DNA from: Dehalococcoidia bacterium
GTDB taxonomy: Bacteria; Chloroflexota; Dehalococcoidia; Lucifugimonadales; Australimonadaceae
Length of the DNA: 64,000 nt
Assembly: GCA_034422795.1 (NCBI GenBank)
Contig: DAOUJK010000022.1
Location: forward strand, 134,556 to 198,555
Reading direction: 5' to 3'
This document shows positions 7,264 to 63,690 of the stretch, one piece after another. The notes below the pieces were generated by a model. It did not search any database. It was not told where the DNA came from and saw only the letters and a list, made by a program, of their open reading frames with translations. Made by a program: the position numbers and the translations under genes. How positions within the stretch are numbered: the first letter of the stretch is position 1; each line of letters begins with the position of its first letter.

Positions 7264-8535
7264 ATGCTTTCGACCCAGGACAACGAACGACTCACCCGGA
7301 TCGGCCCCGGCACGCCGATGGGCGAGGTGATGCGCCGCTACTGGCAGCCCGTCCTCATCTCCCACGAACTGCCTCACCCCGACTGTGACCCGCTGCGCGT
7401 GCGCATCCTCGGCGAAGACCTCGTCGCGTTCCGCGACACGTCCGGCCGCGTGGGCCTGATGAGCGAGTGGTGCCCCCACCGCCTCACGTCCCTGTGGCTG
7501 GGCCGCAACGAGGAGAACGGCATCCGCTGCGTCTACCACGGTTGGAAGTTCGACGTGCACGGCGCATGCGTGGACATGCCGAACGAGCCCGCGGAGTACG
7601 ACTTCAGCCGCAAGGTGCGCGTCACCGCCTACCCCACGGTGGAGTTGGGCGGCGTGATCTGGACGTACATGGGGCCGAAGGAGCAGACCCCGCCGGAGCC
7701 GTCGTTCGAGTTCACGAGGCAGCCGCAGACGCATCGTCACGCGTCCAAGGTGATCGAGGAGTGCAACTGGCTGCAGGCGCTGGAAGGCGGCATCGACTCC
7801 GTGCACTCGTCCTTCCTCCACCGGAAGTTCGGCACCGGCGGCGCGACGGGACTCGACGGACTGCGAGCGAAGGCGACCGCCTCCAGGCTGGAGGTCGAGA
7901 CGACGGACTACGGCTACCGGTACGGGTCGATCCGTCCCATCCCCGGCGAGGACGCGAACTACGTCCGCACCTACCACTTCGTCATGCCCCACATCCAGAT
8001 CCGGGCGGCGCAGCTGAACAACGACGGCTCCTGGTTCAAGTTCAAGATCGCCGGCCACCACTGGGTCCCCATGGACGACGAGACCACGATGGTCTGGAAC
8101 TGGTTCTACACGCTGGACGAGCCGCTCACCCAGGACGAGCGCGACGAACTCGCCAACGGCAACGGCCCGGACTACGTCGACCAGGCAACGTGGCGCAGCA
8201 TCCGCAATCCGCGCAACAACTGGATGATTGACCGGGAACTGCAGCGCACGGACACGTTCACCGGCATCGCAGGCATCAACTCGCAGGACCGGGCCGTGCA
8301 GGAGGCGATGAAGCCCATCGTGGACCGCAGCCAGGAGCACCTCGGCCAGACCGACCGCGCCGTCATCACCGCGCGGAAGATGCTGATGCAGGCGACCCGC
8401 GCCGTCGAAGACGGTGGGATGCCTCTCGGCGCGAACGACTCCTACTACTACATCCGCGCCATCGAGGAGGTGCTGCCGGGTGACGTCCGGTGGCAGGACG
8501 CGCTCATGCAGAAGATGTACGTGGGCGCAGCCTGA
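7264..8535 (+). CDS. Rieske [2Fe-2S] aromatic-ring-hydroxylating oxygenase, alpha subunit (phthalate/KshA-like, no beta subunit adjacent)
   Basis: Rieske motif 'CPHR...17 aa...CVYHGW' and a mononuclear-iron motif 'DSVHSSFLH'. Length 423 aa. Confidence 0.85.
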   Translation: MLSTQDNERLTRIGPGTPMGEVMRRYWQPVLISHELPHPDCDPLRVRILGEDLVAFRDTSGRVGLMSEWCPHRLTSLWLGRNEENGIRCVYHGWKFDVHGACVDMPNEPAEYDFSRKVRVTAYPTVELGGVIWTYMGPKEQTPPEPSFEFTRQPQTHRHASKVIEECNWLQALEGGIDSVHSSFLHRKFGTGGATGLDGLRAKATASRLEVETTDYGYRYGSIRPIPGEDANYVRTYHFVMPHIQIRAAQLNNDGSWFKFKIAGHHWVPMDDETTMVWNWFYTLDEPLTQDERDELANGNGPDYVDQATWRSIRNPRNNWMIDRELQRTDTFTGIAGINSQDRAVQEAMKPIVDRSQEHLGQTDRAVITARKMLMQATRAVEDGGMPLGANDSYYYIRAIEEVLPGDVRWQDALMQKMYVGAA

Positions 8536-8566
8536 GGGCCGGGGCGCCGCAAGCATCAGACCGTCG

Positions 8567-8596
8567 TACGGCTCGCAGAACGTTCTGCGAGCCGTA
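8567..8596. terminator. Perfect 30-nt palindrome downstream of the Rieske gene
   Basis: 'tacggctcgcagaac|gttctgcgagccgta' lies 32 nt after the stop codon. No U-tract follows, so it could be a Rho-independent-like stop, an RNA stabiliser or a protein-binding site. Confidence 0.4.
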
Positions 8597-8819
8597 ACAC
8601 TCTCTTAACGTTCGTGTAACCGGGACGCAACACCCTGCCGGTAGCATGGGTGTTGAAGCGAACACCGGCACGGACATGGGTGGCTCCGCCCTCGATACGC
8701 GAAGGAGCGACGGATAAGAGGTGTGCCGGAAACGCTGGCAAGAGGAATGAAGGGCGGGGAGACCCGCCTTCTTCCTTTTTTTGCGGCTCTTGCACACCTT
8801 GGCGGTGTGCGGCGTGGTG

Positions 8820-9030
8820 TGGGTGTCTGGCCCCCTCTCCTGAGGGAGAGGGCTGGGGTGAGGGCCCTCCGGGGTGGGGCCTGGGCTATCCCCCACCTCG
8901 CCCTCTGGGAGAGAGCCTGCCCTGAGCCTGCCGAACGGGTCGCCACGTAGTGGCGGGTGAGGGCTCTCGGGGCGTCTGAGCCCCTCGCCCTACAGGGGGA
9001 GAGGGACAGGGAGAGGGTACTCCCGGGCGG
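8820..9030. repeat. Two copies of repeat family C
   Basis: 'ccctctcctgagggagagggctggggtgagggccc' (~8831-8868) and 'gcccctcgccctacagggggagagggacagggagaggg' (~8978-9020). The ORFs predicted here (GEGWGEG...) are artefacts of the repeat. Confidence 0.75.
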
Positions 9031-9046
9031 TGCCTGGGGGTCTCCC

Positions 9047-10543
9047 CTAGCCGGCCCCGTAGACGGCCGTGTCCGGGTGGAACGAGAACCACCCGTGCCA
9101 GAACGAGGTTATCGTCGGTATGCGCGCCAGCGTCTCCGTGCCGTCCAACCGGGTCAGCGCGTTCTCGCCGACACTCCACTCGCCGCCCTCTGCGTCCCGC
9201 AACCCGTCCCCGTCCTCCGCGAACGTGCGCCCGTCCCGTTCGTAGACCCTGCCGGTGCCCCACGTGCTCGATCCCATGACGACGATCCCCTGTCCGCCCA
9301 CCACGTCGTTGATGACGGGCTCCCCGGCGAACGCGGAGACCGGGTACGCCTTGTAGTCGCCGTTGATGCCCACGCCGATGACCGTCTCCTTGGCGTGCAG
9401 CGCCTCGTCCCGGTTGAAGACCGGGAACATCGTCCTGGGCGATGCGAAGTAGTCGTAGTAGATGGCGTGCGGCTCCCACTCGTGGGCGTACTGGGTCGGC
9501 GAGTAGACGCCGGTCTCGATGTCGAGGACGGTCGTGTCCGGGTGCTCGGCGAGCCACTCCTCCCATGTCGTCAGCACGGACGGGAAGAAGTCGAGCTTGA
9601 TGCCGCTGGACGCCAGCGGGCCGACGACGGGCTCGCCCGTGAACTGGTTCCATATCGAGTTCGTCGTGCGGTCGTACATCAGCTTGTTGCTCTGGTAGAG
9701 CATGCCGGACGTGCCGAAGGTGGTGGGCTCCCCGTCTATCTTTGCGGAATACACGATCCCGCTGAAGCAGAGCGTTCAGTAGGCGAGCGCTATCGGCTCG
9801 CCTCCCAACACGTCGTTCGCCATCTCGTGCGGGTTCATGATGCGCAGCGGGTAGGCGCGGTGCTCGCCGTTGATGGAGACGCCGAAGACGCGGTCCCGCG
9901 GGTCCAGGTAGTCCGCCTCCTCCGGGGTGAGCGTGGGTGCGAACTGCAGGTCCGGGATGCCGTCCGTGGGCACGCCGCCCCAGACGGCTTCCGTGAGGTC
10001 GATGCGCTCCGAGCCCGGCGCGGAAGTGAAGAATGCCGCCATGCGCGGGTCGATGATCCCGAGGATGTTCACCTTCCAGTCGAGGTAGCCGTCCGGGGGA
10101 GGGAACTCGCCCCTGCGGGGGCCGAGCCACTCCATCGCCGCGTTCCACGCAGGCTGGTTGAGCCAGAAGTCCTGACCGGTGAGGCTCAACAGGGCCTGCC
10201 GGTACTCCTCGTCCAGTACGGGCCCTCCGCCGTACCGCATGATCTCGACGATGATGGGCACCTGGGAGGTGTCGTTCGCCGCAACGGCGTCGGCGAGGGC
10301 GCGTCGCGTTTCGTCGAGCGTCTGGTCGATGTCGCTGAAGATGCCCCACATCGTGTCGTTGGGGTCATAGTCGCCATCCGGCGCGGAGGTTGGAACGGGA
10401 GTGCCCGCCGGAGCCGGCGTAGCCGTGGGGACCGGGGTGGGCGCGGGAGTCGCCGTCGGGGGCTCGGGCGTGTACGCAGTGGAGGTACAGCCCGCCACGA
10501 CGATGGCAGCGGCGAGCAGGATCGTGAGGGAGATTCGTGACAT
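9047..10543 (-). CDS. DUF3179-family lipoprotein interrupted by one in-frame TGA (codon 256): selenocysteine candidate or pseudogene
   Basis: ORFs 9776-10543 and 9047-9754 share one frame and are separated only by the TGA at 9778-9776. The N-terminus has a lipobox signal 'LLAAAIVVAGC' and a PT-rich linker. Read-through gives '...NDVLGGEPIALAY[TGA]TLCFSGIVYSAKIDGEPTTFGTSGMLYQSNKLMYDRTTNSIWNQ', a contiguous DUF3179-like core. Confidence 0.7.
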
Positions 10544-10664
10544 AGCGCCCTGAGTTCAGTATACGCCCTGCTCGTGGGCATTCGATGTGTCCTTGAAGGA
10601 GGTCGTCCGGTCCCTTCCCTCCTGATGAGACCTTCGCGTAACTGTGTGAGGCGCCACTGGGAGG

Positions 10665-10730
10665 GGTGGTGGTGTCTGGTTCCCTCTCCTGAGGGAGAGG
10701 GTTAGGGTGAGGGCCCCCGGTGGGGTGGAT
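10665..10730. repeat. Repeat family C copy
   Basis: 'tctggttccctctcctgagggagagggttagggtgagggcccccgg' is nearly identical to the 8831-8868 copy. Confidence 0.75.
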
Positions 10731-10830
10731 GGGTCACACAAGGTCTCTTGATGAGGGAAGGTCAGGATGGGGGTGAGCGGCCTATAGGCGCCCCCCACCC
10801 ATGCCGGGCCGCTTTTGCGATAATGCCCCC

Positions 10831-11823
10831 ATGACGACGGTTGGAGACTTGGGAGAGACGGCGCTGATCGAACGCATCACCGAGCGCGTGCGCCGGGCCA
10901 GCCCACTGCAGACGATGGGCGGACGGATCATCACCGGCATCGGGGACGACGCCGCCGTGTGGCGCGTCGGAGGGGTGCAGGCTGCCACGACCGACACCAT
11001 GGTGGAGGGAGTCCACTTCCGAACGTCGACCGCGTCCTGGGCAGACGTGGGCTGGAAGGCCTGGGTCTCCAACGTGAGCGACATCACCGCGATGGGAGGC
11101 GTGCCGGTGGCCGGCCTGGTCACGCTTGGTCTGCCCGCTACCCTGAACGTGAGCGACGTCGATGGCTTGTATGACGGCATGCTGGAAGCGTGCGCCTCGT
11201 ACGGGACCGAGCTGATGGGCGGCGACATCGTCGGCTCGCCTGTTCCGTTCGTCACCGTGGCCATGACCGGCGTCTGCAGCGCCACGCCGCTCACGCGCTC
11301 GGCGGCGCAGTCCGGCGACGCGCTCGCGGTGACCGGCCCCCTCGGAGGCTCGCGCGGCGGGCTCCTGCTGCTGGAGGACGGCGCGCCGCTGGACACCCCC
11401 GCGCGGCAGGCGCTGGCGCTGGCGCACCGCAGGCCCAGGGCGCGGACGGACGCTGCCGCCGTGCTCAAGCGCCACGGCGTGCGCTGCGCCATGGACATCT
11501 CCGACGGGCTCGCCGCCGACCTCCCGAAGCTCGCGAAGGCATCCGGGGTCGCCGTGCAGCTCGATGCGGACCAGGTCCCCGTGGCGGACGCGCTCCGGAG
11601 CGAGTTCCGCGCGGAGGCGATGCGGATGGCGCTGAGCGGCGGCGAGGACTACGAGCTGCTCTTCGCAGGCCCGTCCGACATCGTCACAGCCGCCGTTGCC
11701 GAGCTCCGCGGGAGCGCGGCCATCGGGACGATCATGGACGGCGCGCCGGGCAGGGTCGCGTATGTCGCCGGACGAGGCGAGCCGCTCTCGTTCAGCGCTG
11801 AAGGTTGGGAGCATCTGCGATGA
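10831..11823 (+). CDS. thiL: Thiamine-monophosphate kinase
   Basis: 'GETALIERI', 'IGDDAAV', 'ATTDTMVEGVHF' and 'GGDIVGSP' indicate an AIR-synthase-like fold. ATG at 10831 is preferred (10801 is possible). Confidence 0.88.
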   Translation: MTTVGDLGETALIERITERVRRASPLQTMGGRIITGIGDDAAVWRVGGVQAATTDTMVEGVHFRTSTASWADVGWKAWVSNVSDITAMGGVPVAGLVTLGLPATLNVSDVDGLYDGMLEACASYGTELMGGDIVGSPVPFVTVAMTGVCSATPLTRSAAQSGDALAVTGPLGGSRGGLLLLEDGAPLDTPARQALALAHRRPRARTDAAAVLKRHGVRCAMDISDGLAADLPKLAKASGVAVQLDADQVPVADALRSEFRAEAMRMALSGGEDYELLFAGPSDIVTAAVAELRGSAAIGTIMDGAPGRVAYVAGRGEPLSFSAEGWEHLR

Positions 11824-12293
11824 CGGAAGCACGTTTCCGAACGAACAGCGCCGAGGAGACGCAGGCGCTCGGGCGCAGGCTCGGCGCGCTCGCGGAGCCC
11901 GGCGACCTCTACCTGCTGCGCGGGACGCTCGGCGCGGGGAAGACGACGCTGACGCAGGGCGTCGCCTGGGGCGCAGGCGTGACCGGCTACGCGCACAGCC
12001 CCACGTTCGTGCTCGTGCACGAGTACCGGGGACGCATCCCCGTCTACCACGTGGACCTCTTCCGGATGGACGGCGGTGACCTCGAGATAGACGACCTCGC
12101 CTTCGGCGAGATGCTGGAGGAGGGGGCGTGCGTCGTGGAGTGGCCGGAGCAGGCGCAGGCCGTCTTCCCGGACGAGCATCTCGCGGTGGGCATCGCTTTC
12201 GGCGACGGGCCGGACGCCCGGGTGCTGACGCTGGAGCCCCACGGCGAGCGCTACGTCCGGCTGATCGCCGCGTTGCGAGCGGAGGCCGGATGA
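11820..12293 (+). CDS. tsaE: tRNA t6A37 biosynthesis ATPase TsaE
   Basis: P-loop 'GTLGAGKTTLTQG' and 'SPTFVLVHEY'. An ATGA overlaps the thiL stop. Confidence 0.88.
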   Translation: MTEARFRTNSAEETQALGRRLGALAEPGDLYLLRGTLGAGKTTLTQGVAWGAGVTGYAHSPTFVLVHEYRGRIPVYHVDLFRMDGGDLEIDDLAFGEMLEEGACVVEWPEQAQAVFPDEHLAVGIAFGDGPDARVLTLEPHGERYVRLIAALRAEAG

Positions 12294-13054
12294 CCGCGTA
12301 CCTCGTGATAGACACCTCCACGCGCTACGGGGCGGCGGGCCTGTGGCGGAACGGGTTGTCGCGTGTCGTCTCATGGCGCTCGCACAACAACCACACGGCG
12401 GAGCTCATGCCCGCCGTCCGCTCGCTCACGGACGCGGAAGGCATCGCGCCCGACGCGCTGGAGGGCATCGCCGTGAGCGTGGGGCCGGGCGGGTTCAGCG
12501 CGCTGCGGACCGGCATCGGCGTCGCGAAGGGGCTGGCCGTCGCCTGGGGCCTCCCGGTGGCGGGAGTCAGCACGCTGGAAGCGTCGGCCTATCCCTACCG
12601 AACGGCTGCGGAGCGCGTCTGCGCGGTCCTGCCCGCGGGTCGAGGCGTGGTGGCCTGGGCCCTCTACGGCATGAACGACGGCTCGTGGGGCGCGCTGACC
12701 GAGGAGCAGGTCTCCGCCATCCCCGACTTCGCCGCCGCGCAGTCCACCCCCGCGCGATCCGGCGCCGCGCAGTCCGCTGCCGCGCAGCCCGGCGCGACGC
12801 AACCCGCCGCCACGACGCTCTTCTGCGGCGAGTCGGTGGGGGACGTTGCCGACGCCCTCCGCGAGCGCCTGGGCGCGGACGCGCGGTGCGTCACCGAGCC
12901 CGCGCCGCTCGCGCGACTGTCAGGCGTTGCCGAGCTCGGCGCTGCACTGCTGGCGTCCGGCGAGGCGAGCGCGGCGACCTCCATCGCCCCGCGCTACCTG
13001 CGCCCGCCCCGCATCACCCCTCCCCGCCCCCCGAAGCCCGTCGCGGGCGGCTAG
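12290..13054 (+). CDS. tsaB: tRNA t6A37 biosynthesis protein TsaB
   Basis: 'YLVIDTSTRYGAAGL' Kae1-paralog N-terminus and 'GPGGFSALRTGIGVAKGLA'. An ATGA overlaps the tsaE stop. There is a low-complexity Ala/Gln insert. Confidence 0.85.
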   Translation: MTAYLVIDTSTRYGAAGLWRNGLSRVVSWRSHNNHTAELMPAVRSLTDAEGIAPDALEGIAVSVGPGGFSALRTGIGVAKGLAVAWGLPVAGVSTLEASAYPYRTAAERVCAVLPAGRGVVAWALYGMNDGSWGALTEEQVSAIPDFAAAQSTPARSGAAQSAAAQPGATQPAATTLFCGESVGDVADALRERLGADARCVTEPAPLARLSGVAELGAALLASGEASAATSIAPRYLRPPRITPPRPPKPVAGG

Positions 13055-13059
13055 CCGCC

Positions 13060-13516
13060 CAAGGTCCCCGCTCATCCTGCAGACCCCCCGCTCATCCTGA
13101 GCTTGTCGAAGGGTCATGTTGAGCCTGTCGAAACATCTCGCGCCTTCCCCCGTCGTTCCCGCGTTCAACTGTCCACTTCAACCGGCGACTCTCACGAGTG
13201 CACACAGGGCGCATTCCACTCATTGAACGGTTGATCGGCAAGGCCGTGGCCTGCTTCCTCGTTCTTCCGTTCAACTGGAGCACAGATGAGGGGCGTGCAA
13301 CGCCGACCCATAGACCCTGTTTATGGCTGGGCCCCGAGCTATAGACGCGGTCTATGGCTGCTGCACGTACGACGCTCATGCAACCAGCGTACGCGGTGAG
13401 GGGACCATGGCGTAAGGGGCCGGTGTCAGGAATACGTCATTCCCGCGCAGGCGGGAATCCAGCAGCGCGAACAGGGGTACGCAGCCACTCCGTACTCCTG
13501 GCCGAGGCCACCAGCT
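13060..13516. repeat. Non-coding repeat cluster, left flank of the helicase islet
   Basis: Family A occurs three times (13068-13140), family E 'catgcaaccagcgtacgcggtgaggggaccatggcgtaaggggccggtgtcagg' at 13377-13430, and the family B hairpin at 13436-13462. There is also a 9-bp inverted repeat ccatagacc/ggtctatgg (~13309-13358). No credible ORF. Confidence 0.75.
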
Positions 13517-16500
13517 CTACTCAGGCTCAAACACCAGTTCCGGCACCACGACCTCCCACGCTTCACACTGCACACCGCCTTGGTACTCAGAGTCTGATAT
13601 CTCGCGATTCCAAGTGGCAATCGCAAGGACGCTGGCGGCGATGCACCGCATACCGGCGTCGGGCTCGAAGCGATGCGCGAGTCGCCCCACCACTGCGCCT
13701 GCGGAATCCATTAACTCCCAAGGGTGTGACTTAACCCGAACAGTCAACGGGTCGCCCGGCGCAAGCGAGGCAATGGCGTAGTGAATGTGGTCGCCCGGAC
13801 GTTTACGGCCCGCGAAACCCAAGTCAACGTCCCGCAAGCTGAGCCGCCGGTAGGTGCGCGCGAGTTCCAGCGCTGGGGCCAGAAGCGACAAAGGTTCGTC
13901 CCTGCGCAGCACTGCAGGGCTGTCCGGCAAGGCGTCCTGGAAAGGGTGCGCCCCAGGGAAGCGCGCTAGGGTCAGCGTCTGCCGGGCGCGGGTCATCGCA
14001 ACGTAGTACAACCGGCGCGAGGAATCGGCATCCCTACGCTCAACGCGCTCCCAGCCCCCATCCAATACCGCTACGTGGTCGAACTCCAATCCCTTGGCGC
14101 GATGAGCGGTGGTCAGCAGCAGCCCGCGCTGACGGCGGCGTACCTCCCGCACCCATTCCGCCAGCCACTCGATGAAGTGCGCTACCGGTGTTTCCGCGCC
14201 GCCCGTCTCCAGTGCGTACTCACCCACGGCTTCGAGCAGCAGTTCGTTCCAAGAGCCGGGGGGTTGCGTTTCCAGCCAGTCGTTCAGTTCCACGCTCGTT
14301 ATCAAGCGAGAGTCTCGTTCGCGTACCCAGTGCAGAAGGGCCTGTGTTTCCCGCAAGCGCCAAGTGCCTGAGAAGTCCTCGTTCCCCATCTGCACGGGGA
14401 TGCCCTCGATCTCGCAGAGGCTGCGCACCGGGTCCAGGTAACTCCATTCGCGCGCTATCACGGCGCAGGAAGCCCAACTCCAATCCTGTGTCAGGTTGGA
14501 TAGTCGCTGCAATTCGGCGACGACCGCCTGCGCCTGGGAGATGGACGAATCTCCGGCGGGCAATGTCTGAACGCGGCCTTGCGCAACCGCATCGCGTTGA
14601 GCCCACACGCCACCTGGCGGTTCTTTCTTACGCACTTGGCTTATACGAATGGGATGCCCGCTCTTCATCCGTTGCGTCGCCGGTTCAATCACCGCGTTTG
14701 CAGTCGCGATGATATGGCTGCTGGAGCGGTAGTTGTCGGTGAGGAACACCGGTTTGGCTGCGTAGTCCTTCTCGAACTGCCGGATAAACCGCACCGACGC
14801 ACCCTTGAAGGTATAGATGTTCTGGTCGTCGTCGCCCACCGCGAAGAGGCTCAGTTTGTCGTCTTCTTCGGAGAGCGTTCTACCCGCCAGCGCCGAGATC
14901 AGCGCATATTCGTCGGGGCCGATGTCTTGGTACTCGTCAACCAGTATCCAGCGGAAGCCCGCGAGCAACCGCGTCCGCTGTTCGTCCACTTCCTCGGACG
15001 GCAGTCCTTCTCCGCGCAGCAGGGACACCGCTTCCTTGAGTATCTTTTTGAATTCAGCGTCGTCAAGGTCGTTTGCGCGCCCAGTGAAACTCGCGCCAGC
15101 AAGACTCATGGCGAGCGCGTGGCAGGTGAGCACCACCACACCACGGGCATCGTCGCCGATGAGTTCCGCCAAACGGCGGCGGATATCTACGGCGGCATGT
15201 CTGTTGTACGCGAGAGCGAGAATAGAGTGGGGATTCTCGCGCATCGCGCGCACGAGGTAGGCGATGCGGTGCACCAGCACCCGCGTCTTCCCGGAGCCGG
15301 GACCGGCAAGCACTAGCACGTTGGCCTGCTCTCTTTCGTCCGCTACGATGCTGCGCTGCACGGGGTTGTTCAGGCTCTCCACGATGGCCTGCCACGACTC
15401 TGGCGTGGTCTGGCGAGAGAGGTCTTTGTCTCGCTCCGGCAGCCAGCGGCGCAGGAAGTCCTGCTGGCGGAGGCTGAAGTACTCCATGGTCATCTGCACG
15501 GCGTCTGCAATGGCCCCAAGGCCCCGCATTGCGTATTCCGCCATCACGTGAATCTGGAGCGTCTGTTCCTTGTAGTGGAGATTGAGCGGTTCGAAATCGG
15601 TCCGAGCGAAGCCGCGCCTCTCTTGCTTCAGTCGGATAGTCATGGCCGGGCGGAACACGGCAAGACCCTTGTTCAGGCGGACCACCTCCTGCTCGTGCAG
15701 CCACAGCAGCGCGCGGTCCACCAGTTTGCTGGGTTCCCTGACTTCCTGCATCAGCGTCATGTCCGAGGTGATCGCCTTCAGCAGGTCTCCGACGGTTGTC
15801 TTGCTCAGCCGGTCAGTGCCTCTGCTTTCGGCAGGGAGACAAGCGAGCAGGTGGTCCAGCAGCCGCTTGGCCGCTGCCCTACGCAACTCTGCGGTTTTCT
15901 CTAGGAGCCCCCACTCACGTTGCAGCGTTACTTGGATAGCGTCGCGGTTCACCCCGCGTAGGCCGAGGCTGCCACCGCCTCCACCCTCGCCGCGACCGTC
16001 GGCAGCGATGCTCCGAACGATGCGGCGTAAGCGTTCCGGCGGAGCTTTCTTATAGCCGTCGTCCTTCAGTCGCTGGCTCGCAAGGCGGAGGTGAAGCGTG
16101 GTCGTTTCGCTTATCCCCATGTCAGGCGCAGTCTCGCGCAAGAGGTCTATCGTGGCGCGCTCCAACTCCGCCGCCTCATCGAAGCGTTGCCGCGAACTGC
16201 GCTTCACCTTCTCGTGGACGAAGGCGGTCAGGACCGTATCGTTGGCGGCGATGCCCAGCCGCTCAAGGTCATGGAGAGCGCTCCGTACTCCTTCGGGAGT
16301 GAGACCGGATGCGGACATCAATTCGTCGGTTGAGATGCCTTCGTCTGGGTCCGCTTCGAACAGGGTTGCGGCGATTTTCAGCAGTTGACGGCGACCGGTG
16401 CCCCCTATGCTCGCCTTGGCGAGCCTAGCGCTCGCCTCTTGCAGGGAACGCACCCGCAGGGAGGATGGGAACATCTGTACGCGATTCTCCTCGCGTGTCA

Positions 16501-18625
16501 GCAATTTCGCGTCTTCCAGCCATGCCACTGCCGTGCGCACCCGCGTATCGTCAGTTGTTCTATCGCGCTCGAATTCGTGGTCTTCGTCCCCAATGAGTAT
16601 CTCCCCCGGCGTGGCCACCACTTCGCCGTCCGAGCGGTTCCTCTTGTTCAGGTTGCGCAGCGCTTTCAGGACGCCGTGTATCTCTTGTCGTGTGAGGCGC
16701 GAACGGGCTGACAGCCCGAACTGGCGCTCCACGTCGTCCATCGTGTACAGCAGCACGCAGCGCGCTGCCTGCTGGTCACGACCGGCCCTGCCCGCTTCCT
16801 GCAGGTAGTTCTCCAGGGAGCCGGGGATGTCTGCGTGAATCACGAGGCGGATGTCCGGCTTATCGATGCCCATGCCGAAGGCATTGGTGGCGGCGATGAC
16901 GCGGAGGCGGCCCTCGATGAAACTCTCTTGGACGTTTTTCTTGGTCTCCGGCGGCAACTCCCCGTGAAAGTAGTCCGCTTCCATGCCCTTGTCCTGAAGG
17001 AACTCTGCGACTTCCCTCGTCTGCCGCCGCGTTGCGCAGTAGACGATCGCTCCGCCGGTTTCATGTGCTGGCAGGTCGGACTCGATGAACTGGTGGATGT
17101 GTTCGAATTTCTCGCTGGCGCTTGTCCGTACTACCACGAAGTCGAGGTTGGCACGCTCAGTGCCACCGTTGAAAACCTCGAGCGTGATTCCGAGTTCTTT
17201 CTGAAAGTAGTCAACAATATCCGCCTCGACGTCAGGCTTGGCAGTTGCGGTCAGACACAGCACCGGCGGCACAGTCTCGTTTCCGGCTCGCTCGCGGATG
17301 AACCGCCCGACGTAGCGGTAGTCCGGCCGGAAGTCGTGCCCCCACTTGGAGAGGCAGTGCGCCTCGTCCAGCACCCAAGCGCCTATCTCCCTTTGCGCCA
17401 GAACGCGGCGGACGGCGACGCCGCGCAGCTGCTCAGGTGAAATGATGAGGAGACCGGCGTCTCCCAACCGCACACGGTCGAGAGCGTCGGCTCGCTCAGG
17501 CATGGACAAGAGGCTGTTGATAGTGACGCAGGAATCGATGCCCCGTTTCTCCAAGCCCGCCACCTGATCGCCCATGAGCGCCACCAGCGGTGAGATGATT
17601 ACCGTCAGCGCGCCGGTCTTGTCGTAGCGGGACAGCGCTGGAACCTGATAGCAGAGCGATTTCCCCGCGCCGGTCGGCAGGATCGCCAGTGTGTGCTCCC
17701 CCGCCATCGCAGCCTCTACGACGGAGTGTTGTATGGAACGTCCGGCTTTGTCCGCCGGTTTCGATCGGAAATCGCTGAAGCCGAACCAGCGGGCGAGTTC
17801 CTTGCGGGCGTCGTGCCGCTCAGCGCACCACAAGCAGCCAGCGTCGGTGCAGGGCGCATCCCGCAACCGGCGCACTAGTTGGCCTGCTTCGGGGAACTGG
17901 TACCGCACCCAGGGAGGCATAATCGAATTGCCTCCTGATACGGACAGCCAAGCCAGCGCGTAGGCGAGCGCCCAACCCTGTTCGTTAGGACGCGCCGTGA
18001 CCTCGCGTGCCTGTGTCCGGCAGGAGTTCCCTTCCAGTTGCGCTTGTATAACGTCGCGCGCCTCGGCATCTGATGGCCGTGGCAAGCCCCGCAGTGATGC
18101 GAAGACCTTGTCGAACCCCGCGCCGTACTCTGCCGTAGTGAGCCAGTGCCAAGCGGTCAGAAGATTGGGTGGCGCGTCGCGAAATGCTGTCAACTGGTTC
18201 TCGAACACCTGCAGCGTTAGTCTCGCATCCAGTTCGGGGTCGTTGCGGCGTCCCCGTTTGAGTTGCCCATCCTGATAGTGCTTGACCAGGTGGTGATACG
18301 GGTTGCGAGGGAAAGCCAAGGGATTGAGCCTGAGGGTATCGACTGCGGGCTGTCCCAGCAGCCGGAGGCTTGGATCCGCAGTGCGCAGGTGAATCAGATC
18401 GAAAGCGATCAGGTTGTGACCCAGCAGGAAATCCGCCCCATCGGCAAAACGGTCCAGTCTGGCGAACGCATCAGCCCATGAGTGGCCGGCCCCTGAGAAG
18501 GAGAAGGAACGATTGGTGTCCGAGCGCACTGCGGCGAAGGCGCGGATGCGGCTGCCGTCCCTCAGGACTTCGAGGTCCAACGAGAGGCAACGGAACGGGA
18601 GCAGGCTGACGTTGTCGGACGCCAT
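13517..18625 (-). CDS. 1,702-aa multidomain protein: DEDD 3'-5' exonuclease + RecQ-family SF2 helicase + UvrD/PcrA-family SF1 helicase + unassigned C-terminal domain
   Basis: Exonuclease motifs are 'LSLDLEV', 'LLGHNLIAFDL' and 'NDPELDARL' (nt ~18191-18598). RecQ motifs are 'LPTGAGKS', 'DEAH', 'ATNAFGMGIDKPDIRLVIH' and 'QEAGRAGRD' (nt ~16706-17788). UvrD motifs are 'AGPGSGKT', 'LVDEYQD', 'VGDDDQNIY', 'DNYRSS', 'TAHRAKGLEFD' and 'YVAMTRA' (nt ~13961-15373). GAGAGGA lies before the ATG. The gene is visibly AT-richer than its neighbours. Confidence 0.85.
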   Translation of the reverse strand: MASDNVSLLPFRCLSLDLEVLRDGSRIRAFAAVRSDTNRSFSFSGAGHSWADAFARLDRFADGADFLLGHNLIAFDLIHLRTADPSLRLLGQPAVDTLRLNPLAFPRNPYHHLVKHYQDGQLKRGRRNDPELDARLTLQVFENQLTAFRDAPPNLLTAWHWLTTAEYGAGFDKVFASLRGLPRPSDAEARDVIQAQLEGNSCRTQAREVTARPNEQGWALAYALAWLSVSGGNSIMPPWVRYQFPEAGQLVRRLRDAPCTDAGCLWCAERHDARKELARWFGFSDFRSKPADKAGRSIQHSVVEAAMAGEHTLAILPTGAGKSLCYQVPALSRYDKTGALTVIISPLVALMGDQVAGLEKRGIDSCVTINSLLSMPERADALDRVRLGDAGLLIISPEQLRGVAVRRVLAQREIGAWVLDEAHCLSKWGHDFRPDYRYVGRFIRERAGNETVPPVLCLTATAKPDVEADIVDYFQKELGITLEVFNGGTERANLDFVVVRTSASEKFEHIHQFIESDLPAHETGGAIVYCATRRQTREVAEFLQDKGMEADYFHGELPPETKKNVQESFIEGRLRVIAATNAFGMGIDKPDIRLVIHADIPGSLENYLQEAGRAGRDQQAARCVLLYTMDDVERQFGLSARSRLTRQEIHGVLKALRNLNKRNRSDGEVVATPGEILIGDEDHEFERDRTTDDTRVRTAVAWLEDAKLLTREENRVQMFPSSLRVRSLQEASARLAKASIGGTGRRQLLKIAATLFEADPDEGISTDELMSASGLTPEGVRSALHDLERLGIAANDTVLTAFVHEKVKRSSRQRFDEAAELERATIDLLRETAPDMGISETTTLHLRLASQRLKDDGYKKAPPERLRRIVRSIAADGRGEGGGGGSLGLRGVNRDAIQVTLQREWGLLEKTAELRRAAAKRLLDHLLACLPAESRGTDRLSKTTVGDLLKAITSDMTLMQEVREPSKLVDRALLWLHEQEVVRLNKGLAVFRPAMTIRLKQERRGFARTDFEPLNLHYKEQTLQIHVMAEYAMRGLGAIADAVQMTMEYFSLRQQDFLRRWLPERDKDLSRQTTPESWQAIVESLNNPVQRSIVADEREQANVLVLAGPGSGKTRVLVHRIAYLVRAMRENPHSILALAYNRHAAVDIRRRLAELIGDDARGVVVLTCHALAMSLAGASFTGRANDLDDAEFKKILKEAVSLLRGEGLPSEEVDEQRTRLLAGFRWILVDEYQDIGPDEYALISALAGRTLSEEDDKLSLFAVGDDDQNIYTFKGASVRFIRQFEKDYAAKPVFLTDNYRSSSHIIATANAVIEPATQRMKSGHPIRISQVRKKEPPGGVWAQRDAVAQGRVQTLPAGDSSISQAQAVVAELQRLSNLTQDWSWASCAVIAREWSYLDPVRSLCEIEGIPVQMGNEDFSGTWRLRETQALLHWVRERDSRLITSVELNDWLETQPPGSWNELLLEAVGEYALETGGAETPVAHFIEWLAEWVREVRRRQRGLLLTTAHRAKGLEFDHVAVLDGGWERVERRDADSSRRLYYVAMTRARQTLTLARFPGAHPFQDALPDSPAVLRRDEPLSLLAPALELARTYRRLSLRDVDLGFAGRKRPGDHIHYAIASLAPGDPLTVRVKSHPWELMDSAGAVVGRLAHRFEPDAGMRCIAASVLAIATWNREISDSEYQGGVQCEAWEVVVPELVFEPE

Positions 18626-18639
18626 ACTACAATCCTCTC

Positions 18640-19390
18640 AAGTAGTTCCGCGTCGGAGTTGAGGTAACTTCTCACCGATACGGTCGCCCTAGATTAGCAG
18701 CCGTATCGACCACCGGCAGCAAGTCATTGTAGCCCCCCAACCCCGTGACACGTGCCCCTTTCGCGGTCGCGGCAGGGGCGCGTACGCTGGTAGATGACGG
18801 CGGAGCACCGCTCCGGCGGACGGCCCGTCGTCGGTGGACCTGCCCCGGTGCGGGGTGCCGGAGCGCGCCAAGCGCGTGCAGGAGTGGAATGGCCCACAAT
18901 GGCTCACTTTGGCGCACTTTTCGCGATCCCCCCGTGCGGTCCACGCCTGCGTTGGGGGAACCCTCACCCGCCGCTGCACGGCACCCTCTCCCAAGGGGCG
19001 AGGGGTACAAGGTGGCGCGGGAAGGACAACTGAGGACACGGGGCCACGGGAAGCACATCGGGTTGCACCCGGCATGGTCCTTGGACAAGCTCAGGATGAG
19101 CGGGGTGGGGTCGCAGGAGTGGAATGAGAAGAAATAGGACACAATCCTCAGCGATCTGCAGCGGGCCACGCCTGCCAGTCCCATCCGCAGGAGTGAAGCG
19201 GCATGCTCATTCCGGGCTATCCGCGCTCGGAAGCGAGCGTCAGCCGCTCATCTGTGCGCGTCAGCCGCTCATTCGTGGAGCACCCATGGCCGAGCCGTGG
19301 TCCATTCTGGACCCCCGCCGCGCGAAAACGACAGGCGCGCGGGTGTGATAGGCTACGGAATCCGCCGCCGGGTATGGCGGCACGAAGGGA
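18640..19390. repeat. Non-coding repeat cluster, right flank of the helicase islet
   Basis: Family E in inverted orientation (18745-18790), family C (18956-19015), family A in inverted orientation (19077-19103), 'gcaggagtggaatg' twice, and 'cgtcagccgctcat' twice (~19239-19272). The ORFs predicted here are repeat artefacts. Confidence 0.7.
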
Positions 19391-20747: not shown

Positions 20748-21932
20748 ATGGACGGACGCTTCAGCGCAACGGAACGCGGGAAACGGGTCGTCGTCGCCAT
20801 GTCGGGCGGCGTCGATTCGTCGGTCGCGGCGTACCTGCTGCACCGGCAGGGCTACGACGTCGTCGGCGTCACGATGCGGCTCTGGTCCGCGGACGAGGAC
20901 GACGTATCGCCGGACCACCAGGGCTGCTGCTCGATCCAGGACATCGAGGACGCCCGCCGCGTCTGCCAGGTCCTCGGCATCCCGCACTACGTCGTGGACG
21001 CGAGGCGCGAGTTCCGCGAGCACGTCGTCGCCTACTTCGTCAGCGAGTACGAACGCGGGCGCACGCCGCACCCCTGCATCGCCTGCAACGACCGCATCAA
21101 GTTCGACTTCCTGATGCGGCGCGCCGCCATGATGGACGCTGACTACGTCGCCACGGGCCACTACGCCCGCATCGAGCGCGACGCCTCTGACGGCGCGTGG
21201 GCGCTCCGCCAGGGCGTCGACGCGGCGAAGGACCAGTCCTACGTGCTGTTCGGGCTGGGGCAGGAGCAGTTGGGGCGCGTGCTGCTGCCGGTGGGCGGCT
21301 ACGCCAAGGACGAGATCCGGTCGCTGGCGAGCGAGGCCGGCTTCCATCTCGCTGACAAGGCCGACAGCCAGGAGATCTGCTTCATCCCCAGCGGCGACTA
21401 CCGCCGGTTCATGCGCAGGGAGTCGGCGCCGGAGCCGGGCGAGGTCGTGGACGCTTCCGGACGGGTCGTAGGCGAGCACGCCGGCATCGAGTTCTACACC
21501 GTCGGCCAGCGGCGCGGCATCGGCGTCCACCCTTCGGCGCTCGGCCTGCCGGACGGCGAGAAGCTCTTCGTGACGGCGGTCGACCCCGAGACGCGCCGCA
21601 TCACCGTCGGCGGGAGCGGCGACCTGCTCCGGCGCGGCGTGCGCGTGGGGGACGTCCGCTACGTCGCGGACACACGTCCCGCGGACGCCTGCCGCGTGAC
21701 GGCGAAGATACGCTACAACGGGCGATCCGCTCCCGCCGTCCTCCACCACGACGGCGACGGCGCGGTGCTATGGTTCGACGAGCCGCAGCGCGCCGTCACG
21801 CCGGGCCAGGCCGCCGTGTTCTACGACGGCGACCGCGTGCTCGGCGGCGGCTACATCGAGGGTCCCGCGGAAGCAGGGCTGCCGTCCACGAGCGGAGCGA
21901 ACGGCCCGGCCGGAGTACCGGCTGCCGTCTGA
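20748..21932 (+). CDS. mnmA: tRNA 2-thiouridine(34) synthase MnmA
   Basis: PP-loop 'VVVAMSGGVDSSVAA', 'HPCIACN', 'ATGHYAR' and 'KDQSYVL'. A ~25-aa low-complexity tail follows the usual 'GGGYIE' end. Confidence 0.92.
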   Translation: MDGRFSATERGKRVVVAMSGGVDSSVAAYLLHRQGYDVVGVTMRLWSADEDDVSPDHQGCCSIQDIEDARRVCQVLGIPHYVVDARREFREHVVAYFVSEYERGRTPHPCIACNDRIKFDFLMRRAAMMDADYVATGHYARIERDASDGAWALRQGVDAAKDQSYVLFGLGQEQLGRVLLPVGGYAKDEIRSLASEAGFHLADKADSQEICFIPSGDYRRFMRRESAPEPGEVVDASGRVVGEHAGIEFYTVGQRRGIGVHPSALGLPDGEKLFVTAVDPETRRITVGGSGDLLRRGVRVGDVRYVADTRPADACRVTAKIRYNGRSAPAVLHHDGDGAVLWFDEPQRAVTPGQAAVFYDGDRVLGGGYIEGPAEAGLPSTSGANGPAGVPAAV

Positions 21933-33569: not shown

Positions 33570-36323
33570 GTGTGCGACTTGCTATTGCGCCTTCCAGCAT
33601 CGCTCTTCACGTTATGGGTCGGCCTGGCCGTCCTGGTATGCGCATGCGATGCGGCATCCGCATCTCCTTTCGAGCTGGACGCCAGAGCCAAACCGACACC
33701 CACCATTACCCCAACCCCTGCTCCCACATCCACCCCCGCAGTTACGCTCACACCGACGCCAACGCCTTCCCCGTCACCTTCTCCAACTCAACCACCAACA
33801 CCCACGCTGTCTCCAACCCAATCCCCCACTCCTTCGCCGTCACCGTCTCCAACCCCAACGCCCGCGCCTTCTCCCATCCCCACTTCAACCCCCCGTCCAA
33901 CGCCCACGCCTACAGCCACGGTCACGCCCATACCGCCGACCCCGTCCCTTACCCCAACGCCTACGTCCGCGCCTCCGCCCACACCCACGGCATCCCCTAC
34001 TCCGTCTCCGGTTCCTCCTTCGGTGCGGGAAGCGCGTCCTCCACGCCCTCCTACTCCCACCCCTACCCTTTCACCCATACCTACCCCTACCCCCACTCCT
34101 ACGCAGACACCCCAGGCCCCGCTTCCGGGAATGATTCGCGATTCCATCGGCGCGGGCAGCCTACACTCATGCGCCCTCCGCGCCGACGGTTCCCCCGTCT
34201 GCTGGGGGAACGACGAAAAGGGACAATCATCGCCACCCCCTGACCTCACGCTGATCACACTCGATCTGGGCGGAGCCTACTCCTGTGGCCTTGAGACCGA
34301 CGGTTCGCCCGTGTGCTGGGGTGAAGACGACAATGGTCAGGCGTCTGCGCCAACAACGGGAACATTCGCCTCTATCAGCGCAGGTTACCTCCACGCGTGC
34401 GCGCTGGACCTCGAGGGAAAGCCCATATGCTGGGGTGACAACGACAAGCAGCAATCGTCGCCGCCCGACGAGAAGTTGTTCACCGCGATAAGTTCCGGCG
34501 AAGAGCACACGTGCGCCCTGGAAGCAGATGGCACGCCGGTCTGTTGGGGAAGCAACGCCGCCGGACAATCGTCGCCCCCAGCAGACACAACGTTCTCCTC
34601 GGTAAGCGCAGGTTACCTGCATGCCTGTGGAATCAGGTCCAATGGGTCCGCTGTCTGCTGGGGGCGGAACGACCTGGGGCAGGCGTCGGCGCCGCAGAAC
34701 GAAGCATTCCAAGCAATCTCCGGGGGGCGGAGGCACACCTGTGCGCTCACGACGGACGGAGCGCCTGTCTGCTGGGGCTCCGACACGCACGGTCAGTCGA
34801 CGCCACCAGGAGGAGCGGTGTTCTCAGCGATAAGCGCGGGAGAGAGCCACACCTGCGCCATCACACAAGATGGCACACCCGTCTGCTGGGGCGACACGTC
34901 CGACGGAAGGTCCTCACCGCCCTCTCCGGGAACAAGCCCAACTCCGACGCCGACACCTACTCCATCCCTCACCCCCACTCCTACGCCTACCCCTACCCCC
35001 ACTCCTACGCTCACGCCGACCCCGACTGCCACTTCATCCCCCACACCTGCTCAGACGCCTACCCCTACCCCCACTCCTACACCCACACCAACCCCGACTG
35101 CCACTCCATCTCCAACGCCTACCCAGACGCCTACCCCTACCCCCACTCCTACACTCGCACCAACCCCGACCGCCACTCCATCTCCTACGCCTACCCAGAC
35201 GCCTACCCCTACCTCCACCCCTACGCTTACACCAACCCCGACTGCCACCCCATCTCCTACGCCTACTCAGACGCCTACCCCGATTGCGACACGAACGCCC
35301 TCTGCAACCGTGAGCATATCCTCGGATACCGTTGGTGCAGGCGCTTTTCACTCGTGCTCACTCAAGCCGGACGGCACACCCCTTTGTTGGGGAGACGACC
35401 ACAACGGCCAAGCGTCTCCCCCCTCGGACGTAACGTTGACCGCTATCAGCGTCGGTTCTGGACACACGTGCGGGCTGACGGCGGATGGCTCAGCCGTCTG
35501 TTGGGGAGAAGGGGAGTACGGTCGAACCTCCCCTCCCTCCGACAAGACGTTCACCGCTATCACCGCCGGCTACCTTCATACTTGCGCGTTGGAGAGCGAC
35601 GGTTCCCCTATCTGCTGGGGGGATAACGAGAAGAGTCAGTCGTCACCCCCCGAGAACAGTACGTTCACAGCGATAACCGCCGGGGAGACGCACACATGCG
35701 GCCTGCAGGCGAACGGAACCGCCGTCTGCTGGGGAGGCGTGGACAACGACCACGGCCAGGTCTCGCCACCGCCGGACACTACGTTCACAGCAATCAGCGC
35801 GGGCTACCTCCATACCTGTGGGATCAAGTCGGACGGCTCCATCGCCTGCTGGGGCCTGAACAACAAGAACCAGGTGTCCGACGTTCCGACGGGTCAGACC
35901 TTCATGTCGCTCTCATGCGGACGGCGGCACTCCTGTGCACTGACGTCCAACGGCACGCCTGTCTGTTGGGGTGAGGACGACGAAGGCCAGTCCACACCTC
36001 CTGCCGATGCGGAGTTCGCAGCGATCGGCGCAGGAGAGAAACACTCGTGTGCGTTGCAAGCGGATGGCACGCCTGTCTGCTGGGGAAAAGACGAGCATGG
36101 AAGACTGTCGCCGCCGACGGATATGGGTTCTATGAATCCCACACCCAGATACCTACTACTCGCCTTCCTGGGCCTGATGGCAGCTTCTCTCCCGAACAGA
36201 TCGATGACCAGAGCGCGCAAGAAGCTAGCGTCTTACGCGAGGAGGCGCGCACCCGGGCGAGACAATGTCCCTGGTCAGTATGCCGAAGGTCCCTTCCCGG
36301 TCAGTGCAACGGGGACAAGCTGA
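33570..36323 (+). CDS. Membrane-anchored surface protein with two 7-bladed RCC1-like beta-propellers separated by Pro/Thr linkers
   Basis: Hydrophobic N-terminus '[15 protein letters not shown]'. A PT linker spans aa ~40-185. There are 7 repeats of ~38 aa of the form 'G..H[ST]C[AG]L..DG.P.CWG.....GQ..PP' (aa ~190-450). A second PT linker spans aa ~451-585, followed by 7 more repeats. The C-terminus has a hydrophobic helix '[14 protein letters not shown]' and a basic tail. Confidence 0.8.
35025..35294 (+). repeat. Coding tandem repeat, 72-nt unit x ~3.75 ([24 protein letters not shown])
   Basis: The 24-aa units start at aa 486, 510, 534 and 558 of the RCC1-like protein. The copies are near-identical at DNA level. 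Confidence 0.8.
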
Positions 36324-52169: not shown

Positions 52170-52281
52170 GCGGACAGTCTACCGCGTCGCGGGTCTCGAC
52201 GCGTGAAGAGCACCACCCACGCTTGAAAGTTGACTTGAGGTAAGACTTTGTACTACCATGTTTCTGCTTCTAACATCCATT

Positions 52282-52525: not shown

Positions 52526-52581
52526 ACCTGCGGAAGGGCGCTCCTGTTACGGAACGACAAGCGAAGGAAAGTGAGGGAGTC

Positions 52582-63053: not shown

Positions 63054-63056
63054 CTC

Positions 63057-63350: not shown

Positions 63351-63369
63351 AACCAGCGCAGGGAAGGGG

Positions 63370-63615: not shown

Positions 63616-63690
63616 GCCGATAGCACACCTGACCCATGCAACGGAATGCAACAGGATGCACACCCCCGCCCGCCCCAGCTTTTGAAAACA

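Follow-up and report, generated by a model that had tools for sequence, protein, structure and literature searches.

We describe here a single gene encoding a helicase-nuclease of 1,702 amino acids (aa), located in a Dehalococcoidia genome (assembly GCA_034422795.1, contig DAOUJK010000022.1) within a stretch of 64,000 nucleotides (nt) that we refer to as the window, and to which all coordinates below belong. The open reading frame (ORF) occupies positions 13517..18625 of the minus strand, begins with an ATG, from which residues are numbered, and runs without interruption to a stop codon at 13517-13519. From its N-terminus onward, the protein comprises a DEDD-type 3'-5' exonuclease, a set of four cysteines (Cys4), a RecQ-type superfamily 2 (SF2) motor, about four winged-helix units followed by a helical bundle, a UvrD-type superfamily 1A (SF1A) motor, and a barrel that weakly resembles HIRAN domains. 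These are known domains in an arrangement seen in no characterised protein, and the family that they define is widespread and unstudied. The gene is functional, stands alone, and lies on a laterally acquired segment of 6.3 kb; indeed, its architecture, the conservation of its catalytic motifs, purifying selection, insertion, and lateral transfer are all demonstrated by the computed results presented below. The original prediction for this stretch of DNA had proposed one unbroken 5,109-nt frame in which an exonuclease, a RecQ helicase and a UvrD helicase are fused. The frame is intact over its 1,702 codons, and the fusion of the three modules in a single chain is borne out by Pfam, TIGR00614, an exonuclease profile, and invariant residues. 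A protein reported to be 100% identical to the window helicase is also on record from a 447-kb ENA contig.

Both motor cores are complete, as had been anticipated. The RecQ-family SF2 core (aa ~276-640; 16706..17800, minus strand) matches Pfam DEAD at aa 297-467 and Helicase_C at aa 506-617, and its score of 298.6 bits against the NCBIfam model TIGR00614 (recQ_fam), for which the cut-off is 219.8, places it in the RecQ family. Conserved features of this core include the Walker A lysine K322, the DEAH box at 420-423, the RecQ aromatic loop 'CLSKWGHDFRPDY', and R616. Assignment to the canonical bacterial RecQ proteins (the TIGR01389 and PRK11057 equivalogs) was rejected, as TIGR01389 gives 334 bits against a cut-off of 640.2 and aligns only over model positions 4-337 of 591. 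In addition, no Pfam match to the RQC, RecQ zinc-binding (RecQ_Zn_bind) or HRDC domains was found in the ORF at E<=0.1. The UvrD/PcrA-type SF1A core (aa ~1086-1555; 13961..15370, minus strand) is covered by Pfam UvrD-helicase from aa 1087, by AAA_19, and by UvrD_C and UvrD_C_2, which extend to aa 1554; with 130.2 bits for PF00580, 56 bits for PF13361 and 36.3 bits for PF13538, it belongs to the UvrD/Rep/PcrA group of SF1A helicases.

Conservation was assessed by aligning 43 full-length members of the family, whose identity to the window protein is only 35-64%, and in this alignment the Walker A lysines, the DE(A/Y) boxes and the arginine fingers are invariant in both motors. For the UvrD core, the invariant positions are K1113, the DE pair at 1230-1231 (DEYQD), the motif 'GDDDQNIY', R1300, and R1546. 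Individual members of the UvrD group were nevertheless rejected as identities for this core, as the scores against the equivalog models are 167 bits versus a cut-off of 911 for pcrA, 152 versus 1144 for uvrD, 129 versus 951 for rep, and 134.5 versus 543 for helicase IV. Indeed, the NCBIfam equivalog models for recQ, uvrD, pcrA, rep, helicase IV, addA and recB all score far below their cut-offs. For three parts of the protein, namely its first 280 aa, a central 445 aa and the last 147 aa, there is no Pfam match even at E<=10.

The N-terminal module (aa ~10-150; 18176..18598, minus strand) has a DnaQ/PolC/DinG-type DEDD 3'-5' exonuclease fold, as judged from profile matches to PDB entries and from invariant carboxylates. 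Pfam gives no match to its RNase_T or exonuclease families in this part even at E<=10, and the assignment instead comes from a search of all PDB sequences with a profile built from 20 diverse N-termini of the family. The best match is the 3'-5' exonuclease of Staphylococcus aureus DinG (8zef, E=2.5e-4), and the weaker matches are almost all DEDD exonucleases, including small DEDD-type proteins, PolC, T7 DNA polymerase, Pol II and Cas2-DEDDh. When the same profile was compared by hhalign with single DnaQ and Orn sequences, the motifs fell in the correct register at an insignificant probability. The carboxylates D17 and E19 (the DxE of Exo I), D76 (Exo II) and D133 (Exo III), which characterise DEDD (DnaQ-like) exonucleases, are invariant in the 43 members, as are H70 in Exo II, D96, and K115. 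In the alignment to DinG, 'GHN..FD' lies over 'AHNV-DFD' and 'NDPxxDA' over 'HRADEDA', so that the position of the DEDDh histidine is occupied by N128, a register that alignment to DnaQ also supports. Thus, both the placing of a DEDD exonuclease at aa ~10-145 and the reading of Asn128 in lieu of the usual His or Tyr, each proposed at the outset, hold up.

The DEDDh subclass is defined by a His five residues before the last Asp, and the DEDDy subclass by a Tyr four residues before it. Neither assignment could be retained, as the window protein has Asn128, and family members carry Asn, Ser, Gln or Pro at this position, never His or Tyr. We conclude that the N-terminus has the fold and metal site of a PolC/DinG-type DEDD exonuclease, with a non-canonical general base. 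The exonuclease is joined to the RecQ motor by a helical linker (aa ~151-275; 17801..18175, minus strand) in which C202, C259, C264 and C267 are invariant across the 43 diverse members. The original prediction had described a Cys/His cluster here; a conserved cluster is indeed present, and the set consists of cysteines, without the histidine part. The Cys4 set is presumed to bind zinc.

Sequence-level searches of the middle region and the C-terminus, by Pfam at E<=10 and by profile against the PDB, gave nothing useful, and these parts were examined as structural models. An AlphaFold2 model of the family-specific middle region (aa 641-1085; 15371..16705, minus strand), built with 18 family sequences and having a mean predicted local distance difference test (pLDDT) score of 73.7, contains approximately four helix-helix-helix-strand-strand units, which are winged-helix-like, followed by a long helical bundle. 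The non-diffuse Foldseek matches are to the tandem winged-helix proteins RPC62/RPC3 of RNA polymerase III, the C-terminus of Cdt1, ESCRT-II, the Roquin ROQ domain, and MukE/F, all of them weak, and no enzymatic fold appears among the Foldseek matches of this region. An earlier impression of these ~440 aa as helical or winged-helix-like is therefore in keeping with the model and its matches.

The C-terminal beta-barrel (aa 1556-1702; 13520..13960, minus strand) is modelled by AlphaFold2 with a mean pLDDT of 86.8, exceeding 90 over the folded part, as six strands with two or three short helices. Foldseek searches of the PDB returned 3k2y (probability 0.93), Kluyveromyces lactis Rad5, and the HLTF HIRAN structures 4s0n and 4xzg; searches of BFVD returned entries named 'HIRAN domain protein' from Mimiviridae and Myoviridae, Gp253 of Bacillus phage G, and a 454-aa siphovirus protein labelled DNA polymerase III alpha. 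These fold matches are weak, with E-values of 1e-3 to 1 overall and 0.06-1.2 for the HIRAN matches, and template modelling (TM) scores of 0.3-0.5, and HIRAN domains are the sole named fold to recur among them, doing so in two independent structure libraries. At the sequence level, the C-terminus has no Pfam match at E<=10, PF08797 included, and no match in the PDB profile search. We regard a HIRAN-like, 3'-end-binding barrel as a lead suggested by modelled structure, not a finding.

Originally, the architecture could not be placed in any named repair or defence family; the gene is no isolated rarity, and belongs to a large and widespread family with constant domain order. An exhaustive HMMER search of 1.84 billion representatives clustered at 50% found 928 that carry the middle region, 246 of them at E<=1e-30. 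In full-length proteins, which measure 1,670-1,911 aa, this region invariably occupies approximately residues 630-1130, and identity drops to ~30%. The middle region serves to define the family. A protein search also recovered more than 100 clusters at 71-89% identity across the full length, and the few names that already exist in the databases ('RecQ family ATP-dependent DNA helicase') come from metagenome-assembled genomes (MAGs) of Chloroflexota.

In a scan of one genome per GTDB species, there were at least 556 confirmed matching stretches, and the best 80 of these, each a separate locus, are 63-76% identical to the window protein along its whole length. These 80 fall in Chloroflexota (Dehalococcoidia and Caldilineaceae), Poribacteria, Latescibacterota, Nitrospirota, Alpha-, Beta- and Gammaproteobacteria, Binatia, Acidobacteriota, and Thermodesulfobacteriota. 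Many of the isolate names among the matched genomes belong to what we take to be marine sponge MAG series. At ~43% identity, a profile search finds further members in cultured bacteria, including Methylomarinum, Geopsychrobacter electrodiphilus, Magnetovirga frankeli, Endothiovibrio and Methylobacter. Copies from no fewer than 10 phyla are 63-76% identical to the window protein, yet those of other Proteobacteria reach only ~43%. Family members are also carried by 27 plasmid records, some of them conjugative and mobilizable, with hosts that include Thiothrix, Rhizobium, Cereibacter, Paracoccus, Croceicoccus, Sulfitobacter and Allochromatium. A phage origin was rejected: no family member occurs in 50,697 phage records, only four of 2.9 million IMG/VR contigs contain one, and the one such contig that was inspected has methylases (ParB-methylases) and transporters beside the gene, with no phage structural genes.

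Full-text literature searches found no paper on the exonuclease-RecQ-UvrD architecture, and a study of polyvalent proteins (PMC5512222) mentions UvrD and RecQ-like helicases only in other contexts. Taken together, this is a large, strongly conserved and uncharacterised family of fixed architecture that is syntenic within lineages. A distant relative also occurs on Nostoc punctiforme plasmid pNPUN02 (L102), at 7784-12802. Its middle region is ~21% identical, and its annotation divides it into three consecutive ORFs over 5.0 kb (a RecQ family helicase, a UvrD-helicase domain protein and a '3'-5' exonuclease'). This is probably a disrupted copy of the same architecture, and its intact counterpart in Calothrix NIES-4105 measures 1,668 aa. 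Elsewhere, the helicase on a 5-kb contig labelled Chromatiales (L062) is 94% identical to a Latescibacterota copy (L035), reflecting either a very recent inter-phylum transfer or a mis-binned contig.

The insertion history of the window gene could be read directly from related genomes. As had been noted originally, it is a lone gene between thiL, tsaE and tsaB on one side and ndk, followed by rsfS and mnmA, on the other; its non-coding flanks measure 462 nt and 775 nt. Two comparison genomes, G92 (locus L092) and G93 (locus L093), were found through the closest TsaB homologues. In G92 (ENA ERZ25067264, a 3.06-Mb contig), the order is thiL-tsaE-tsaB-ndk-rsfS-mnmA and the tsaB-ndk spacer is 102 nt, so that the adjacency of tsaB and ndk, whose examination in related genomes had been suggested, is seen there as an empty site. 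In G93 (GCA_034423175.1), the helicase lies between tsaB and ndk with junctions as in the window, which represents an occupied site. A three-way alignment of the window, the occupied site and the empty site delimits an inserted segment of 6,280 bp (13055..19334); the tsaB stop codon directly precedes it, and on the other side it extends to the point at which the sequence again aligns with the native region upstream of ndk. No recombinase gene lies within this insert, and no target-site duplication was seen at the insertion. G92 also bears a helicase copy (L001), 89% identical, in a different context about 420 kb from its empty site. At that locus (L001, 20637-25043), the helicase lies ~5 kb from rpoC, as it does in a more distant Dehalococcoidia genome (L033, 12522-16565), which hints that the rpoC-proximal locus is the older location in the lineage.

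Divergence at synonymous (dS) and nonsynonymous (dN) sites, estimated by the Nei-Gojobori method among the window, G93 and G92, dates the gene relative to its surroundings. Between the window and G93, helicase dS is 0.34 and that of neighbouring genes 0.28-0.45, a match that indicates co-divergence since a shared insertion. Between the window and G92, the values are 0.29 for the helicase versus 0.38-0.63 for the neighbours, and between G93 and G92 they are 0.27 versus 0.43-0.76; the synonymous divergence of the helicase from the G92 copy is thus about half that of the housekeeping genes. As the helicase is younger than the species split with respect to G92, lateral transfer between related lineages is required. 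Its dN/dS of 0.17-0.19 against the two relatives resembles that of thiL and tsaB and shows the window helicase to be under purifying selection.

Base composition is consistent with this history. The gene has a GC content of 0.626, compared with 0.672 +/- 0.013 for other 5.1-kb windows (minimum 0.645; z = -3.6), and its GC at third codon positions is 0.743, compared with 0.85-0.94 in the clearest host genes. The AT shift that had been visible by eye is real and modest. Across 77 loci, the gene holds ~0.62 GC as its flanks span 0.48-0.72, so that it exceeds its surroundings in GC where the host is low in GC and falls below them where the host is high. Copies group by phylum, and pairs at least 80% identical mostly share flanking genes (31 of 56, 8 of 18, and 8 of 9 pairs), whereas pairs below 80% rarely do. 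These patterns speak for ancient transfers between phyla and prolonged vertical descent within lineages, with an occasional recent transfer, of which the window is an example. The proposal that the gene is a horizontally acquired islet thus draws support from the empty and occupied sites, the dS incongruence, and composition.

The gene was also thought to be bracketed by repeats. Short repeats are indeed abundant in both flanks, and they are not specific to the gene, the families being dispersed genome-wide. A 33-nt inverted pair has one arm at 13086..13118 (plus strand), which is a copy of a repeat dispersed genome-wide, and a second arm, 91% complementary to the first, at 19073..19105 (plus strand); six copies of this repeat occur in the window, compared with 0.19 expected. 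We rejected the pair as transposon ends, as the family is dispersed, absent from the gene flanks in both L093 and the G92 copy, and off the insertion boundaries. A second unit of ~55 nt has a 3'-side copy at 13376..13430 (plus strand; TCATGCAACCAGCGTACGCGG...GCGnAAGGGGCnnGTGTCA), inverted with respect to a 5'-side copy at 18745..18797 (minus strand). This unit, with core CCAGCGTACGCG, forms an inverted flanking pair in the window, in G93, and in L002, a 76%-identical helicase copy at another locus; a third copy in the window lies at ~63545-63600. The flank repeat families recur elsewhere in the window, at 905, 57570, 63061, 63208 and ~63545-63600. An intergenic stretch of ~0.8 kb at 63050-63880 consists almost wholly of short dispersed repeats, among them tandem ~125-nt units at 63056-63180 and 63203-63330. 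Because this spacer is made of the same repeat kinds, the repeats are not particular to the helicase gene, and repeat debris typifies the long spacers of this genome in general.

A conserved 13-nt leader block, CTGCTAATCTAGG, is found at 18688..18700 (minus strand), its distance from the downstream ATG being 63-75 nt. The window, L093, L001 and L002 all have it unchanged, four loci that represent three genomic sites, as L001 and L002 are located elsewhere; it is probably a promoter or operator. A known RNA or promoter in the flanks was rejected: scans for sigma-70 and terminator consensus sequences performed at chance level, with nothing convincing at CTGCTAATCTAGG, and no Rfam family was found there at E<=1. 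The transferred unit therefore carries its own leader and possibly its own terminal repeats, with repeat-mediated movement as a candidate only.

How does this protein compare with known helicase-nucleases? Like WRN, it places a DEDD 3'-5' exonuclease N-terminal to a RecQ-family motor in one chain, both acting 3'->5'. The WRN exonuclease, however, is of the DEDDy/RNase D type, whereas that of the window protein is PolC/DinG-like with Asn at the His position; WRN has RQC and HRDC domains, neither of which was detected here, and it has no UvrD motor and no HIRAN-like domain. Firmicute DinG (PDB 8zef) is the best N-terminal profile match and also has its exonuclease N-terminal to a helicase, but the DinG motor is single, XPD-like and 5'->3', and its DEDDh His is present. 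RecBCD, AddAB and AdnAB are likewise large helicase-nuclease assemblies; they work at DNA ends with a pair of ATPase motors, of which one or more is UvrD-like. Those complexes are multi-subunit, with a RecB-type PD-(D/E)XK nuclease for which the window protein has no Pfam match, and the RecBCD motors are opposite in polarity, whereas the window protein combines in one chain an SF2 motor with an SF1A motor that nominally has the same polarity. Membership in this group was rejected, given no PD-(D/E)XK match, addA and recB equivalog scores far below cut-off, and no conserved neighbour. HLTF and Rad5 likewise fuse a HIRAN domain to a motor, the likeness on the window side being one of weak fold; in those proteins the HIRAN domain is N-terminal, the motor SNF2-type and a RING domain present, whereas the window barrel is C-terminal. 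The window protein thus lacks defining features of each of WRN, DinG, HLTF/Rad5 and RecBCD/AddAB/AdnAB, among them the RQC and HRDC domains, the His or Tyr, a PD-(D/E)XK nuclease and partner subunits.

Among defence proteins, PsyrT/RqlH, DpdF and GajB have RecQ- or UvrD-like cores, and the window protein scores well against the corresponding PADLOC models. These matches are to the generic cores only (aa ~270-660 and ~1190-1420), with DpdF at 382 bits over aa 269-658, PsyrT, and GajB at 168 bits. In contrast to PsyrTA, Dpd and Gabija, the PsyrA, dpd cluster and GajA partners are absent, and no PADLOC model spans the whole protein. The known systems in PADLOC-DB v2 (Dpd, PsyrTA, Gabija and others) were therefore rejected, as only ATPase cores match and no partner is conserved. 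Single-protein immunity by a nuclease-helicase is represented by Nhi and Hna, with which the window protein shares a stand-alone nuclease and helicase design; some family copies also lie in defence islands.

A mechanism can be suggested from what these domain families are established to do. On single-stranded DNA, both RecQ and UvrD move 3'->5'; DEDD nucleases digest 3'->5', and HIRAN domains bind free 3'-OH ends. Because all enzymatic parts would act on or from a 3' end, the most likely mechanism is unwinding and degradation initiated there. The protein would capture a free or recessed 3' end, one or both motors would unwind the duplex inward, the winged-helix array might hold the duplex or the displaced strand, and the 3'-ended strand would be fed to the exonuclease and degraded. 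The outcome would be loss of the 3' ends needed for rolling-circle or recombination-dependent replication, priming, and strand invasion. That DNA is unwound and degraded from a free 3' end in this way seems to us evenly poised between right and wrong. Granted such an activity, a role in defence against foreign DNA falls somewhat short of an even chance. The role is slightly more likely to be attack on foreign or aberrant DNA (phage or plasmid intermediates, linear DNA) than housekeeping repair. As a complete proposal, a single-protein system against foreign DNA, in which a HIRAN-like domain senses 3' ends, two motors and an atypical DEDD nuclease destroy phage or plasmid intermediates, and the whole travels between phyla as a cassette with leader and inverted repeats, is tentative and rather unlikely to be correct in all its parts.

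The neighbourhoods of family members bear on this proposal. All-against-all comparison of flanking ORFs at 82 loci found no ORF family at more than 11 loci and none at a fixed distance; with no conserved neighbour, the protein evidently acts alone. A 364-aa ORF directly downstream in two distant members was considered as a partner and discarded, the two proteins being unrelated. Of 13 annotated contexts, 5 have restriction-modification (RM), BREX, CRISPR or Gabija-like genes no more than 10 kb away: a type I RM system adjoins the gene on an Allochromatium plasmid, type I-D CRISPR-Cas lies 4 kb away on a Thiothrix plasmid, and BREX with RloB/AAA_21 (Methylomarinum), a methylase with an AAA_15/UvrD pair (Geopsychrobacter), and HsdR with an integrase (a JGI metagenome contig) are found within 10 kb elsewhere. 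Toxin-antitoxin pairs occur within 10 kb at four loci, and one locus is an integrative element with a large serine recombinase and a Replic_Relax protein. The Magnetovirga copy has mfd, mutY, parC and a SNF2 helicase nearby, the Caldilineaceae copy adjoins ogt and NurA, and two loci, one of which is the window's site, have plain metabolic or housekeeping genes. Among 51 independent loci of the window's clade, strong PADLOC matches make up about one in ten adjacent ORFs (SoFic, Zorya ZacC, MADS, RM, and PARIS AriA). Small genes annotated '3'-5' exonuclease' also lie within 10 kb of the helicase on Thiothrix pTfr153 (L082, 16774-17355) and Allochromatium pALVIN01 (L084, 23727-24344). In four Nitrospirota genomes (L042, L043, L044 and L050), an mnmA homologue lies directly beside the helicase, just downstream, and in the window mnmA (20748-21932) is 2 kb away, a proximity that may be coincidence.

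Several observations weigh against an enzyme that attacks foreign DNA from 3' ends. The canonical His or Tyr general base is missing, and the predicted exonuclease may therefore have little or no activity; motors that share one polarity cannot move together on both strands of one DNA end; and the HIRAN assignment is weak, coming from faint fold matches to a model with no sequence signal. Adjacent ORFs at the 51 loci are mostly ordinary metabolic or housekeeping enzymes, and a decay of defence genes with distance was sought there and rejected, as ~10% of ORFs have a PADLOC match both among those adjacent to the gene and among those more than 6.5 kb away. Copies at least 80% identical are mostly syntenic, which bespeaks long vertical retention, the architecture is unusually constant for a defence gene, and the Magnetovirga copy sits beside mfd, mutY and parC. 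Proximity to defence genes, compared within loci without a genome-wide background, is suggestive at most. The anti-phage or anti-plasmid effector of the original prediction is accordingly not established, given generic PADLOC core matches, no partner gene, and nearby defence genes that occur commonly without predominating and show no distance decay within 10 kb.

The alternative that survives best is a host genome-maintenance enzyme, an accessory machine for repair or replication restart that is vertically retained where it occurs. Its substrates would be nascent 3' ends at gaps, at R-loops, and at forks that have stalled or reversed, following a logic like that of HLTF or WRN. Strong purifying selection on an architecture constant to ~30% identity, synteny among closely related pairs, mostly housekeeping or metabolic neighbours, and the repair-related company of the Magnetovirga (mfd, SNF2 helicase, mutY) and Caldilineaceae (ogt, NurA) copies all favour it, as do the textbook precedents of exonuclease with RecQ in WRN and HIRAN with a motor in HLTF/Rad5. 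However, the distribution is patchy, gene and species trees conflict, and transfer has occurred even between close relatives; copies reside on plasmids and in integrative elements, defence systems adjoin the gene in several genomes, and its composition is unadapted to the host. Nor was any tie to recA, lexA or other repair operons seen, SOS boxes lying outside that search. We consider host maintenance possible and, on balance, unlikely.

Less probable still is cargo of mobile elements, serving replication, transfer, stability or counter-defence of a plasmid or an integrative and conjugative element, with the chromosomal copies as remnants. Such a role could account for the 27 plasmid records, conjugative and mobilizable ones among them, for the copy whose element also encodes Replic_Relax and a large serine recombinase, for integrases or resolvases near the gene in the Allochromatium, JGI-contig and Geopsychrobacter contexts, and for the four IMG/VR contigs, one with ParB-methylases beside the gene. 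Against this, most copies are chromosomal among ordinary genes without mobility genes, the family is absent from the phage records and nearly so from the IMG/VR contigs, the 6.3-kb insert of the window has no recombinase, and synteny within lineages is stable; we therefore think it improbable. Equally improbable is a translocase or protein-stripper whose catalytically dead DEDD domain only binds 3' ends, perhaps an anti-recombinase like UvrD or Srs2, since the family-wide replacement of the DEDDh/DEDDy residue by Asn, Ser, Gln or Pro and the missing Pfam RNase_T match would suit it, but four metal-binding carboxylates invariant at 35-64% identity are hard to explain without catalysis.

Two further features of the window lie apart from the helicase. 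A 917-aa protein at 33570-36323 (plus strand) contains 12 RCC1 repeats (PF13540, E=3.7e-106), in a stretch of lower GC and strongly negative GC skew (-0.14 to -0.28); it is a eukaryote-like repeat protein of a kind reported from host-associated bacteria. In addition, Rfam RF00230 identifies a T-box leader at 52278-52507 (plus strand) with 102 bits, which exceeds the gathering score; the leader lies directly upstream of, and overlaps the predicted start of, an acetolactate-synthase-type thiamine-pyrophosphate enzyme (52441-54279).

Helicase-nuclease machines that act at DNA ends are central to both repair and anti-phage immunity. In the family described here, RecQ (SF2) and UvrD (SF1), which are usually separate proteins with overlapping roles, are locked in one chain with an exonuclease and a probable 3'-end reader, and this design has been kept from ~30% to 90% identity, in many phyla and on plasmids. 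Its culturable hosts include Rhizobium, Cereibacter, Paracoccus, Allochromatium and Geopsychrobacter. The family raises the questions of how two motors of the same polarity cooperate and whether a DEDD nuclease can work with neither His nor Tyr, and, more broadly, whether a gene for DNA-end surveillance is shared laterally among marine host-associated bacteria.

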